Of a DNA stretch of 44,059 nt, positions 1-34,173 are shown piece by piece; positions within the stretch are counted from its first letter, which is position 1, and every line of letters begins with the position of its first letter. The translations under genes were made by a program, and so were the position numbers. The DNA is from Frankiaceae bacterium (GTDB lineage Bacteria > Actinomycetota > Actinomycetes > JAFAQI01), in the NCBI GenBank assembly GCA_025929315.1, contig JAICMI010000005.1, forward strand, positions 1 through 44,059, given 5' to 3'. Under the pieces are notes generated by a model, which saw only the letters and a program-made list of their open reading frames with translations, had not been told where the DNA came from and searched no databases.

Positions 1-546
1 GCCACCTGCGGCCAATGACATCAGGAACGTGAAGATCTCGTCGATGACCTGCGGCGCGAGCCCCGTCGAGACCTCGTCGAGAAGTACGACGTCGGGGCGG
101 CGTACCCGAGCAGCAGACAGCGCAAGCATCTGCTGCTCACCGCCCGACAGCGTGCCGGCCTGCTGCGTCAGCCGCGAACCCAGCGCCGGAAAGGCATCGA
201 CGGCCCGGGCTACCGCGTCAGCTGCGTCGCCGTCTGCGGCGTGCAGCTGGATGTTCTGCCGAACCGTGAGATTGGGAAAGATGCCACGGCCTTCTGGCAC
301 GTGACACAGTCCGCGGCCGGCACGCCGGTGCGATGGTTCCGACGTCACATCGACACCGTTCAACCACACGGAGCCCGCATCCGGGGTGAGCACGCCGGAC
401 GCCACGTTGAGGAGTGTCGTCTTGCCGGCGCCGTTGGGGCCGAGCAGGGCGACGACCGAACCGCTCGGCACGACGAGGCTGACGTCACGCAGGACCGGAG
501 TGCCGGCGTAACCCGCGTGCACGCTGCGCAGCTCGATGCCGCTCAT
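1..546 (-). CDS. ABC transporter ATP-binding protein, LivF-like (3' end runs off window)
   Basis: Not in ORF track; read by hand from ATG at 546 (ATGA overlap with upstream stop): MSGIELQRVHAGY...GPNGAGKTT (Walker A), [28 protein letters not shown]. Confidence 0.93.
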   Translation of the reverse strand, partial: MSGIELRSVHAGYAGTPVLRDVSLVVPSGSVVALLGPNGAGKTTLLNVASGVLTPDAGSVWLNGVDVTSEPSHRRAGRGLCHVPEGRGIFPNLTVRQNIQLHAADGDAADAVARAVDAFPALGSRLTQQAGTLSGGEQQMLALSAARVRRPDVVLLDEVSTGLAPQVIDEIFTFLMSLAAGG

Positions 547-1304
547 GCGGCTGTCCCGAGATAGGCGGCACGCACCACTTCACTTCGTACGGCGTCTTGC
601 GGCGTGCCCTCGAAAAGCAGCTTGCCGAAGTCGAGGACATACAGGTAGTGGCAGACACTGAGAACGAGTTCCATGTGGTGCTCGACGAGCAGGATCCCGA
701 TCTCCCGCTCCCGAACGACATGAGTGAGGATCGCTCCGAACCGTTCGGACTCGCGGTCGTCAAGGCCGCTCGACGGCTCGTCCAGCAACAGCATGTGGAA
801 GCCGCCGGCCAGGATGCGCGCAAGTTCGACCAGACGGCGGTTGCCGGTGGACAGTGCCCCTGCCGGTCGATCGGCAAAGGTCTCCAGCCCGCACACGACC
901 AAGGCCTCATCAGCCGCTGCAGCGACCGTGCGCTGCTCCGAACGACGACTGAACAGCTGCCGCCAAGGCATCGAGCCCGCGAGCACACCCTCGCGACCCA
1001 GCTCCACGTTCTGCCGCACGCTGAGTGAGTTGAACAGCTCGATTCGCTGGAACGACCGACCCAGACCCAGCTGCGCGCGGCGGGCGAGCGGCAGGCGCGT
1101 GATGTCCCGACCATCGAGCCGGACCCGGCCACTGGCCGGACGGACCAGACCGTTGCTTGCGTTGAACAGCGTGGTCTTGCCCGCGCCGTTGGGCCCGATG
1201 AGACCGGTGATCCGGCCGGTCGGTGCCTCCAGGCTGACGTCGTCCACGGCGACCAGACCGCCGTAGCGGACCGTCAGCGACTCGACGGCGAGACCGCTGG
1301 TCAT
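543..1304 (-). CDS. ABC transporter ATP-binding protein, LivG-like
   Basis: [27 protein letters not shown]-terminal VRAAYLG. Confidence 0.95.
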   Translation of the reverse strand: MTSGLAVESLTVRYGGLVAVDDVSLEAPTGRITGLIGPNGAGKTTLFNASNGLVRPASGRVRLDGRDITRLPLARRAQLGLGRSFQRIELFNSLSVRQNVELGREGVLAGSMPWRQLFSRRSEQRTVAAAADEALVVCGLETFADRPAGALSTGNRRLVELARILAGGFHMLLLDEPSSGLDDRESERFGAILTHVVREREIGILLVEHHMELVLSVCHYLYVLDFGKLLFEGTPQDAVRSEVVRAAYLGTAA

Positions 1305-32613: not shown

Positions 32614-32625
32614 CCCTTCTTCGCG

Positions 32626-34173
32626 CTAGCTGGACGAGGCGCTCGGGGCCTTGTACGGAATGTACGGCGTCGTGTAGCAGGTGTTGTGGTAGTCGCCGAC
32701 CGTCTGGAAGTCCTTCTTGGCTTCGTTCCAGTGCGCGATGGTGATGCACTGGTTGAGCGTCTTCTTGGTCTGGAAGTTGTACTTCTGGTTGTTACGCGGA
32801 TACCAGATCCCGTGTGCGCTGTAGGGCTGCGGCCTGTTGAGGTAGTTCATCAAGCAGATGCGGGTGAGGTCGGCGCCGCAGGACTTCGCCGCGTCGGCGA
32901 ACCACATCGCACTCGCCCATCCGTCGACGTTCCACTCGAACAGGTTGTTCTTTCGGCTGCGGAAGTAGCGGTCCATCGCCGCACGGAACTTGGCGATCTC
33001 CGGGTTGTTGGTCTGGTCGTATCCGAGCGTGCCGGGGATGTCGCTGCTGTAGATGTAGGTGCGGCAGGGGTAGTCGAACGTCGAGCCGACCGACTGCGCC
33101 CAGGTCGAGATCGTGGAGACCTTGGCTTTGAGCACGAGCTGGTTGGAGTCGATCGACTTGCAAAGGTTCTGGTTGCCGCCGATGTCGAGCGAGTCGAACA
33201 GGAACTGGATGCCCTTGTGCTTCATGTCGAGGACGTCACTGTCCCACTGCGGCAATGCAACGTTCTCGGGGTACTTCGTAACCTGCACGCCTTCCTTCTG
33301 CAGCGCCAGCGCGAACGAGTCACCCGCTTCTTTGGACTGGGCCGACTGGTCGTAGTAGATGACGCCGGCCTTGGTCATCCCCATCTTGGCTTTGAAGTAG
33401 TGGAACATCTGGGTGCCCTCGTAGAGGTTGCCCTTGTAGCCGATGTGCTGGCCGTCGGTGGGATACATCTGGCCGCTGTAGCGCCAGCTGTAAGGCAGCG
33501 CGTAGTCGTAGAAGTCGATCGCGAGACCGCCCACCGAAGGGATCTTGAGGTCACTGATGTATTTCAGACCGGGACAGACGAGGCAGTCGTCGGCCACGAA
33601 CGCGAAGACGCCGGTCTTGCCGTCCTTGGCGAGGTTGCGGGCACAGTCGTTGTTGCCCTGCCCGGTGCCGCCGTCGTCGCAGGTCTGGAAGTTGACGGCG
33701 CGGCCGTTGATCCCGCCGTGCGCGTTGAGGTAGTCGAAGTAGGCCGCGGCGCCGTAGTAGAACGCGGTGAACTGATCCGGTCCAAACGAGCCCGACTTGG
33801 TCACGATGTTGCCGACGTTGATGGTCGTCGGGGTCACGCCGGCATCGCTGGCCGTGTTGGGCTTGCTGGCGCCCGGCGCGCGTCCCGAGCCCTGCGTCGA
33901 GGTTCCGCCGGTCGCCGTACTGCCGCCCGAGGTCGAGCCCGGCACCGTGGCACCGCCGCCCGTCGCGCCGGGCACGCTCTGGCCGGGCTGGGCCGCCCCG
34001 GCAGTGGCTCCCGGCACCGGCGCAGCGCCATTGGTCGCTCCGACAGCGGTGCCGCCGTTGGCGGTGGACCCCGCCGCGACGAAGTCCTTCATCGGGCGCC
34101 GACTGCCGCAGGCAGTCAGCACCAGGCATGCGGCGAGTGCGATCAATACAGCCAGCTGGGTCTTGCGGCGCAC
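32626..34173 (-). CDS. ABC substrate-binding lipoprotein (Leu/Ile/Val-binding-like fold)
   Basis: GGAGG RBS; lipobox LTAC; Gly/Thr/Pro linker; SDAGVTPTTINVG, LNAHGGINGR, CDD. Confidence 0.9.
   Translation of the reverse strand: MRRKTQLAVLIALAACLVLTACGSRRPMKDFVAAGSTANGGTAVGATNGAAPVPGATAGAAQPGQSVPGATGGGATVPGSTSGGSTATGGTSTQGSGRAPGASKPNTASDAGVTPTTINVGNIVTKSGSFGPDQFTAFYYGAAAYFDYLNAHGGINGRAVNFQTCDDGGTGQGNNDCARNLAKDGKTGVFAFVADDCLVCPGLKYISDLKIPSVGGLAIDFYDYALPYSWRYSGQMYPTDGQHIGYKGNLYEGTQMFHYFKAKMGMTKAGVIYYDQSAQSKEAGDSFALALQKEGVQVTKYPENVALPQWDSDVLDMKHKGIQFLFDSLDIGGNQNLCKSIDSNQLVLKAKVSTISTWAQSVGSTFDYPCRTYIYSSDIPGTLGYDQTNNPEIAKFRAAMDRYFRSRKNNLFEWNVDGWASAMWFADAAKSCGADLTRICLMNYLNRPQPYSAHGIWYPRNNQKYNFQTKKTLNQCITIAHWNEAKKDFQTVGDYHNTCYTTPYIPYKAPSASSS

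Follow-up and report, generated by a model that had tools for sequence, protein, structure and literature searches.

Two loci for Liv-type importers with additional proteins

The stretch of DNA analysed here (the window) is a 44,059-nucleotide (nt) contig, C145, of the metagenome-assembled genome (MAG) of a Frankiaceae bacterium (G000, 2.65 Mb, 68% complete). We found that it carries, at 1–6603 and 27099–34173, two loci for ATP-binding cassette (ABC) importers of the Liv/HAAT type, in which the transporter genes are accompanied by genes encoding small membrane proteins, called B here, and an exported anchored protein, A. Judged from sequence comparison, the window appears to encode, twice over, a specialised form of the Liv/HAAT importer that occurs across the phylum and has dedicated accessory proteins. 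The G+C content of the window is 63–72%, and reading frames were picked by third-position GC.

Locus 1 is encoded on the minus strand and begins with SBP1 (5137..6603; PF13458 Peripla_BP_6, E 3.7e-42), a predicted lipoprotein of the substrate-binding protein (SBP) type with a low-complexity linker of about 100 amino acids (aa). It is followed by A1 (3908..5140; 410 aa), exported and C-terminally anchored, a distant member of the A family by hidden Markov model (HMM; E 1.3e-17), and by two members of the B family: B1 (3651..3917; 88 aa; B HMM 6.5e-21), which consists of a hairpin of two transmembrane (TM) segments alone, and C1 (3187..3654; 155 aa; B HMM 6.5e-32), in which such a hairpin, with a degenerate loop motif, precedes a putative H-x3-C...C-x2-C zinc module. 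The remaining genes encode HM1, a fused LivH-LivM permease of B-linked clade I described below (1301..3211; 636 aa; PF02653 E 1e-49, two stretches), a LivG-type ATPase (543..1304; PF00005 E 1.1e-27; PF12399 BCA_ABC_TP_C E 5.6e-6) and a LivF-type ATPase (1..546; PF00005 E 2.2e-30), the latter truncated by the window start and overlapping livG by 4 nt. With the chosen starts, all six junctions from SBP1 to LivF are overlaps (4, 10, 4, 25, 4 and 4 nt), the 25-nt one being that of C1 and HM1. The initial annotation had reported that every adjacent gene pair of this locus overlaps, which proved correct; its outline of the locus also holds, except that the end at 6582 falls about 20 nt short of the SBP1 start chosen here (6603).

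Locus 2 lies on the plus strand and has the order A2 (27099..28457; 452 aa), an exported, C-terminally anchored and beta-rich protein with 73 homologs and no Pfam or NCBIfam family, B2 (28563..29102; 179 aa), for which the family alignment and an AlphaFold2 (AF2) model give a two-TM hairpin, a cytoplasmic helix and an Ada-like zinc module, HM2 (29118..31112; fused LivH-LivM, 664 aa; PF02653 E 1.2e-52, two stretches; clade I), a LivG-type ATPase (31109..31870; PF00005 4e-31; PF12399 1.2e-8) and a LivF-type ATPase (31867..32613; PF00005 3.1e-28). The corresponding lipoprotein SBP with a long linker, SBP2 (32626..34173; PF13458 E 4.9e-33), is encoded convergently on the minus strand, a placement that recurs in many of the related loci L096–L133. 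In both SBPs a lipobox-like Cys, recognised by eye, precedes a linker of about 100 residues that is enriched in Gly, Thr, Ala and Ser.

Both loci thus show the HAAT/Liv hallmarks, i.e., two PF02653 domains per permease, a PF00005 domain in each of the four ATPases, PF12399 in the LivG protein of either locus and SBPs of the Peripla_BP_6 family. When compared with the NCBIfam LivH, LivM, UrtB and UrtC equivalogs, the window permeases score far under the cut-offs. Pfam and open reading frame (ORF) analysis also bore out the earlier description of the two loci as sharing an anchored protein, B-type protein(s), fused LivHM, LivG, LivF and a long-linker SBP.

The B family

The two-TM part is homologous in B1, C1 and B2 (BLASTP: B1-B2 7e-14, C1-B2 6e-10, C1-B1 2e-7), while the zinc module is present in C1 and B2 and absent from B1, which retains the Q-x-P-Y-L-x-S motif. 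In an alignment of 31 members (B2 numbering), G47, Q57, G68, H140, C144, C169 and C172 are invariant, and P59, Y60, S63, G64 and G65 nearly so. The three invariant residues G47, Q57 and G68 are located in the hairpin and its outer loop, and the outer-face motif G-x-x-G-A/V-S ... Q-x-P-Y-L-x-S-G-G is strongly conserved, which makes this part of the hairpin, ahead of the zinc module, the best-conserved region of B. The AF2 model of B2 (mean predicted local distance difference test, pLDDT, 84.6) has helices at 14–50 and 58–107, a disordered stretch at 115–125 and a module of three strands and a helix at 130–178. Because basic residues occur on the N-terminal tail and after helix 2, and a zinc module follows, both termini are predicted to be cytoplasmic.

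The zinc module most resembles that of N-Ada, which ranked first when the B-family profile was run against PDB sequences (E 0.067) and when the B2 model was searched with Foldseek (E 0.81; N-Ada chains at ranks 1, 4 and 9, E 0.8–1.6), the two best Foldseek matches to it covering about 50 columns at a root-mean-square deviation of 3.0–4.5. Residues H140/C144/C169/C172 of B align with C38/C42/C69/C72 of Ada, and both share a G-(F/L)-x-P-C-x-x-C-x-P end; the putative ligands of B are therefore three conserved Cys and an invariant His, which replaces the methyl-acceptor Cys38. Ada_Zn_binding (PF02805) matches 4 of the 31 members (best E 0.036), none above the gathering cut-off, and DUF6233 (PF19746) matches 18 of them (best E 9.5e-6), B2 reaching 17.2 bits with the cut-off at 27.6. 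Since these scores stay below threshold and a His takes the methyl-acceptor position, the term Ada-like denotes resemblance only, and B is not a member of the Ada_Zn_binding family. B1, C1 and B2 are without a Pfam or NCBIfam family, and domain-family scans of B found no helix-turn-helix (HTH) or other specific DNA-binding domain. A Protein Atlas search with B2 returned solely clusters of unnamed hypothetical proteins, commonest in Actinomycetota.

Other arrangements of the same parts also occur. P0200, P0204 and P0209, which rank among the top matches of the protein-wide profile search described below, contain, in one chain, two hairpins followed by a zinc module, and from their sequence they appear to be the fused counterpart of the separate B1 and C1 of locus 1. 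Separate tandem short and long B genes were considered as a general rule and rejected, as they occur only in locus 1 and L090 among the window and the 140 fetched loci. In P0199 (899 aa), about ten tandem zinc modules alternate with Ala/Pro-rich linkers, with no membrane segment evident by eye; this protein as a whole exceeds the Pfam cut-offs for both Ada_Zn_binding (54.5 bits vs 23) and DUF6233.

The anchored proteins A and A'

A1 and A2 are built alike: behind a signal-like N-terminus comes a large ectodomain, then a stretch rich in Pro, Thr, Ala and Gly, and finally a single C-terminal hydrophobic helix with a short basic tail. Their direct BLASTP comparison is not significant (E 7). An A-family HMM, built from 23 A2-type proteins (three of the source MAG and 20 encoded immediately upstream of B elsewhere), aligns A1 over its full length with common motifs (E 1.3e-17, 55.8 bits; 5.2e-17 in a second run). 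Every one of the 73 A2 homologs is unnamed or hypothetical, and the nearest named relatives come from Frankiaceae MAGs. The AF2 model of A2 (pLDDT 73.2, 174 residues at 90 or above) consists of a long antiparallel beta-meander at 40–355 with one helix, a disordered tether at 361–418 and a helix at 420–442. With this model, Foldseek against the PDB returned outer-membrane beta-barrels alone, in partial, sub-threshold matches (TM-score 0.10–0.20), and the best score of a wide VIA-align search was Z 6.5, under the stated noise level of 7–8; the A-family profile matched nothing among PDB sequences below E 0.3.

In a part of the related loci the place of A is taken by another anchored exported protein, A'. 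Its N-terminal part bears a W-rich motif, a Gly/Thr/Pro linker leads to the single TM helix, and the cytoplasmic tail, about 70 aa long, has a basic end that is conserved. We treat A' as unrelated to A, as hhalign gave a probability of 1.2% and aligned the TM helix alone. Pfam scans of A1, A2 and A' found no MCE domain and no family above cut-off, and A1 and A2 are also without an NCBIfam family. With clean HMMs, 22 of the 60 loci of the first set described below were found to have A, 25 to have A' and 13 to have neither; the corresponding numbers for the second set (80 loci) are 44, 19 and 17. The two never occur in one locus; A and A' are thus mutually exclusive in B-linked loci.

Two further proteins of the source MAG, C120:23983–25074 and C90:5578–6504 (both on the minus strand), are exported, C-terminally anchored and Pro/Thr/Ser-rich, and their genes follow livF of permeases from clades without B; they resemble each other (tblastn 8e-8). 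Their fit to the clean A' HMM is marginal (E 1.7e-5 and 1.7e-3), and they were excluded from the A' counts.

Genomic linkage of B to Liv genes

The source MAG contains six B-family genes in five loci, all adjoining Liv genes. Besides the two loci of the window, these are C165 (A-B-LivHM), C10 (SBP-LivHM-LivG-...-A-B, followed by the contig end) and C154, where B stands right after the end of livF; around six other Liv loci of this MAG have no B by tblastn. Across the phylum Actinomycetota, the B profile matches 97 of 401 sampled genomes (11 of these flagged as unpublished), and the positive genomes, counted by family, include 21 of 21, 10 of 10, 19 of 26 and 6 of 10. Run against 1.84 billion representative proteins, the profile gave 7,213 matches at E<=1e-3, the weakest tier of which probably includes proteins with the zinc module only, 2,847 at E<=1e-10 and 320 at E<=1e-30.

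For the first locus set, 8 kb on either side of the best B match were fetched from 59 published genomes, plus one second match (n=60). LivHM, LivG or LivF are encoded within the fetched DNA in 54 of the 60 loci, and in each of the six exceptions (L037, L062, L065, L067, L092 and L093) the contig ends within about 2 kb of B. The second set comprises the best 80 of 343 confirmed relatives found by scanning a named species collection with Q[IVF]PYL[IV]SGG, and partly overlaps with the first (e.g., L134 = L048, L139 = L047). Liv genes are present in 78 of these 80 loci, both exceptions being contigs of only 3.2 and 2.8 kb. The recurrence of B beside Liv genes is thus far beyond chance. As the outcome that would speak against it, the initial annotation had named a location of most accessory-gene homologs apart from Liv-type transporters; this comparison gave the opposite, with all eight exceptions near contig ends.

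At least four gene orders retain the B-Liv adjacency: (A)-B-HM-G-F, HM-G-F-(A)-B, a convergent order, and a divergent one, in which the operon A'-SBP-LivH-LivM-G-F is accompanied by a B gene pointing away from A'. In the first set, B is located directly upstream of LivHM in 10 loci and in the order LivF-(A)-B in 24 (three of them through an HMM match only), while 10 loci are convergent and 10 divergent. The B-linked systems are spread over Frankiales/Mycobacteriales, Nocardioidaceae, Pseudonocardiaceae, Nitriliruptorales, Microthrixaceae and other Acidimicrobiia. Cultured carriers of the A'-SBP-H-M-G-F-B arrangement include Nocardioides vastitatis CGMCC 4.7608 (L173) and Haloechinothrix aidingensis YIM 98757 (L167). 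What the initial annotation had missed is that B is the constant element, that A is optional or swapped for A', and that the MAG holds three more such loci.

B does not accompany every Liv system. The 2.5-Mb genome G291 has six PF02653 domain matches in three loci and a sole B that adjoins one of them, and single 3-Mb genomes encode 27–38 PF02653 permease domains and up to about seven B matches. For this reason we regard B as the mark of a subset of Liv systems.

Two groups of loci show peculiarities of their own. In L082, L083, L086, L087, L088 and L094, from genomes of 7.5–9.9 Mb of one family (coded f3), B immediately precedes LivHM, A and A' are both missing from the vicinity, and the LivHM frame stays open for 887–1265 codons, possibly into LivG/LivF, be it a fusion or a chance open frame in high-GC DNA. 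In the convergent loci L044, L051, L066 and L068, the gene upstream of B on the same strand encodes a protein whose C-terminus resembles, by eye, flavin mononucleotide (FMN)-dependent alpha-hydroxy-acid dehydrogenases; these upstream genes cluster together in sequence grouping.

Permease clades and fusions

A maximum-likelihood tree was built of 40 LivH domains, including all Liv loci detected in the source MAG and 14 of the 15 of genome G053; L188, which has no full-length domain, was left out. For G053 the fetched DNA covered all of its 15 PF02653 loci, and for G291 the two that remained. The B-linked rows of the tree form two clades, and the 17 rows without B lie elsewhere. Clade I (15 rows, all B-linked; support 94/90, inner node 99/96) is composed mostly of fused LivHM permeases and contains both loci of the window as well as C165 and C10. 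Clade II (8 rows; support 97/86) has split LivH/LivM and is of the A' type. The B label changes twice on the tree vs a mean of 13.2 changes after shuffling, and none of the 500 shuffles was that low. The contrasts within single genomes (G000 and G053) are free of the bias that comes from choosing loci through B.

Fusions join the parts still more closely. In L184 (G053:C2:1548999–1564732), a clade I locus, the ORF 8761..6656 (minus strand) encodes a LivHM, with PF02653 in two stretches, which ends in a zinc module (its last 55 residues match the B HMM at E 6.3e-8); the fetched locus showed no separate hairpin gene. Two more PF02653 proteins of 704 aa (P0197 and P0198) have a zinc tail of the L184 type. 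The hairpin-hairpin-zinc chains together with this zinc-LivHM fusion suggest that two hairpins may function together and that the site of action of the zinc module would be right at the permease. A predicted complex of HM2 with B2 scored 0.00 in two runs made without controls, and weighs neither for nor against binding.

Catabolic surroundings

The neighbours of the two loci in the window, which include a fused acyl-CoA dehydrogenase (ACAD), family III CoA-transferases, cytochromes P450, a thiolase/ChsH2-type fusion and Amidohydro_2 proteins, fit a catabolic island. Across the 140 homologous loci, ACAD genes recur in 19, major facilitator superfamily (MFS) genes in 15, class II aldolase genes in 14, P450 genes in 13–14, and the rest in at most six. 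A fixed catabolic context was therefore rejected as a clue to the substrate, no window neighbour being found in more than 19 of the 140 loci. The earlier description of a lipid/steroid-type island and a hydrophobic substrate is thus not supported as a property of the system. Passages of PMC3223731 describe Liv-type (COG0683) SBPs of R. palustris that bind aromatic, fatty and dicarboxylic acids and not Leu/Ile/Val; since such SBPs bind aromatic and fatty acids, a catabolic context alone calls for no extra subunits.

Some of the neighbouring genes deserve mention in their own right. The 700-aa ACAD (8874–10976, minus strand) has the order C-terminal domain-N-middle and apparently consists of two fused ACAD units. 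The 764-aa fusion at 36939–39233 (minus strand) combines a ChsH2-type zinc ribbon/OB fold with a thiolase-like C-terminal domain. Both resemble, by sequence, enzyme types of steroid side-chain degradation. The regions 6677–26966 and 36333–43723 further contain a sulfatase gene, a luciferase-like monooxygenase gene, two P450 genes and two family III CoA-transferase genes, with six Amidohydro_2 genes within the 44 kb; this amounts to an unusually dense set of decarboxylase/hydratase-type enzymes. Adjoining SBP2 is an MFS_1 transporter gene (34648–35988, minus strand; E 2.1e-49) with relatives near 15 of the 140 B-linked loci, and between the two lies a small ORF (~34271–34650, minus strand) whose product of about 125 aa has a hydrophobic segment at its N-terminus, the 605-aa ORF at this place being in the wrong frame.

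Proposed role of the accessory proteins and alternative explanations

Because of the genomic linkage, which is strict and ancient, the permease clades of their own and the fusions, we propose that B is a dedicated accessory component of these importers and that A or A' probably is one as well. The translational coupling in locus 1 and the mutual exclusivity of A and A' lend further support. Contigs from rhizosphere metatranscriptome libraries, with 95–99% identity to the window, also count in its favour: they extend over A2, B2, SBP2 and parts of the Liv genes, and a single 785-nt contig (28352–29136, 13 differences) runs from the end of A2 through the whole of B2 to the start of HM2. The view of the initial annotation that the extra genes are not incidental is in line with the proposal, given the Liv genes beside B in 54 of 60 and 78 of 80 loci, the separate permease clades and the permease-zinc-module fusion. 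A functional linkage we consider very likely at the least. It is somewhat more probable than even that B is a physical membrane subunit, its zinc modules held on the cytoplasmic side, and that A or A' works on the outside along with the tethered SBP.

In this arrangement, B would be a two-TM helical hairpin with both ends in the cytoplasm, followed by a cytoplasmic helix, a flexible linker and the zinc module. It would lie against LivHM in the membrane, probably as a hairpin pair, and its zinc modules would be positioned near the permease C-terminus and the ATPases, where B may tune the transport cycle or link it with a partner in the cytosol. The other accessory protein would be a type-I anchored ectodomain on a long disordered tether, represented by A in the fused-LivHM clade and by A' in the split LivH/LivM clade, and could serve outside the membrane, together with the long-tethered SBP, e.g., in substrate capture or hand-over. 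More tentatively, and as a possibility that we place somewhat below even, the two ancient HAAT clades may form complexes larger than an SBP with two transmembrane and two nucleotide-binding domains, in which a B pair is integral and A or A' and the SBP collect substrate across the thick monoderm wall; the Ada-like modules would then gate the ATPase cycle or pass the imported acid to a cytosolic enzyme. If true, this would constitute a new architectural class of type-I-like ABC importer with three nameless protein families.

Several observations weigh against the proposal of dedicated accessory subunits. In the convergent and divergent loci B is often transcribed separately, as regulators are. 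The zinc module, to judge by its presence in the soluble multi-repeat protein P0199, seems to be of general purpose. The A family is not obligatory, as in about one fifth of the B-linked loci both A and A' are absent from the fetched DNA, and in L183 (G053) an A-family gene is found near a permease of a clade without B; moreover, the HMM match of A1 carries a high compositional bias (61.5). In the LivH tree, the rows of other genomes were chosen via B, and kin share labels. Finally, the metatranscriptome contigs may derive from DNA and are no proof of a transcript. Their depth is unfit for ranking genes, and the parts of HM2 left uncovered in X2–X4 carry no meaning.

The main rival explanation is that B is a membrane-tethered regulator of the Liv operon, whose zinc module binds DNA or a transcription factor or signals the status of the transporter, A being an unrelated surface protein. 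It draws on the separate transcription just mentioned, on the autonomy of the zinc module, reused in P0199, and on the fact that its nearest solved relative, N-Ada, belongs to a DNA-binding regulator. Yet B lacks an HTH or another specific DNA-binding domain, its His occupies the methyl-acceptor position of Ada, and conservation is highest in the outer-face motif of the hairpin and not in the zinc module. The fusion of this module to a permease C-terminus in one lineage, and the coupling of the B genes within the structural operon of locus 1, where C1 and LivHM overlap by 25 nt, also argue against a regulator, which we regard as unlikely.

We rate lower still, as improbable, the idea that the system is an envelope-spanning uptake machine for lipid/steroid substrates analogous to Mce, with A as the extracellular conduit, as the initial annotation had suggested. 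The fused ACAD, CoA-transferases, P450s and thiolase/ChsH2-type fusion of the window would suit it, as would the ACAD and P450 genes near some homologous loci (19 and 13–14 of 140), the acids bound by Liv-type SBPs according to passages of PMC3223731, and the long curved beta-sheet core that the model predicts for A on its long tether. The notion of an Mce analogue found no backing, however, in A itself: it has no MCE domain or Pfam family, its beta-meander model gave only sub-threshold, partial beta-barrel matches (TM-score 0.1–0.2; Z 6.5) and none that is meaningful, and it is missing or swapped for A' in many loci, while every window neighbour is limited to at most 19 of 140 loci. Just as little probability attaches to A and B taking part, as chaperone-like or biogenesis factors, in some other process of the envelope, such as homeostasis of the wall or membrane, or permease assembly and quality control. 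The linkage data do show a functional association and not its kind, and a small hairpin protein beside a large polytopic permease could aid its insertion or stability; the fusion of the zinc module to the C-terminus of a mature permease and the long retention across two permease clades nevertheless fit a permanent partner better, as the proposed accessory subunits would be.

Novelty and comparison with known systems

The core transporter is of a known kind, whereas B, A and A' are without a curated family or name in the sources queried. In the full-text literature, a scope that leaves subscription papers and supplements outside, we found no description of these accessory proteins, no occurrence of DUF6233 and no paper joining LivHMGF with a cryo-EM structure. 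Liv/HAAT systems are among the most numerous transporters of soil and water actinobacteria, and a conserved accessory set would point to an unrecognised ABC-importer architecture or layer of regulation in monoderm high-GC bacteria. Three unnamed families would gain a functional home that can be tested, directly so as cultured carriers exist, and B may serve as a simple genomic marker for splitting the over-broad Liv annotation.

The LivJ/K-LivHMGF systems form the HAAT family of ABC importers (TC 3.A.1.4). The window systems share with them two PF02653 domains, LivG with a BCA_ABC_TP_C tail, LivF and a Peripla_BP_6 SBP, but differ in the fusion of LivH with LivM, in an SBP that appears to be a lipoprotein with a linker of about 100 aa, in the addition of one or two B proteins and an anchored A (or A'), and in the separate clades of B-linked permeases. 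The R. palustris importers are similar in that, in passages of PMC3223731, they form part of catabolic clusters, with SBPs that bind organic acids of a fairly hydrophobic nature; they belong, however, to a proteobacterium and use free periplasmic SBPs. As for the zinc module, it aligns in ligand spacing with N-Ada (PF02805; PDB 1adn, 1wpk, 1zgw), with Ada first in Foldseek, and 18 of 31 B members are matched by DUF6233 (PF19746), yet it is His-first, tethered to a membrane hairpin, not accompanied by an AraC-type HTH, and scores as a single domain below the curated thresholds.

Mce/Mla-type systems likewise combine an ABC transporter with membrane-anchored extracytoplasmic accessory proteins and small extra membrane proteins. 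In contrast to them, the permeases of the window are of the PF02653 and not the YrbE/MlaE type, an SBP is present, and neither an MCE domain nor evidence of a tunnel was found; for the accessory proteins of Mce/Mla-type systems, the abstracts of PMC5016091 and PMC10517005 may be compared. Finally, B resembles the cytoplasmic regulatory domains known from MetNI and ModBC trans-inhibition, as well as small-protein regulators. The latter are the subject of a 2023 review of transporter modulation (PMC10710835), in which a term search for "branched-chain" found no occurrence. In all of these a transporter is modulated by a small membrane protein or by a small module on its cytoplasmic side. Although B has no homology to any of them, by analogy it most likely works like such small modulators at the membrane and cytoplasmic face of the importer.

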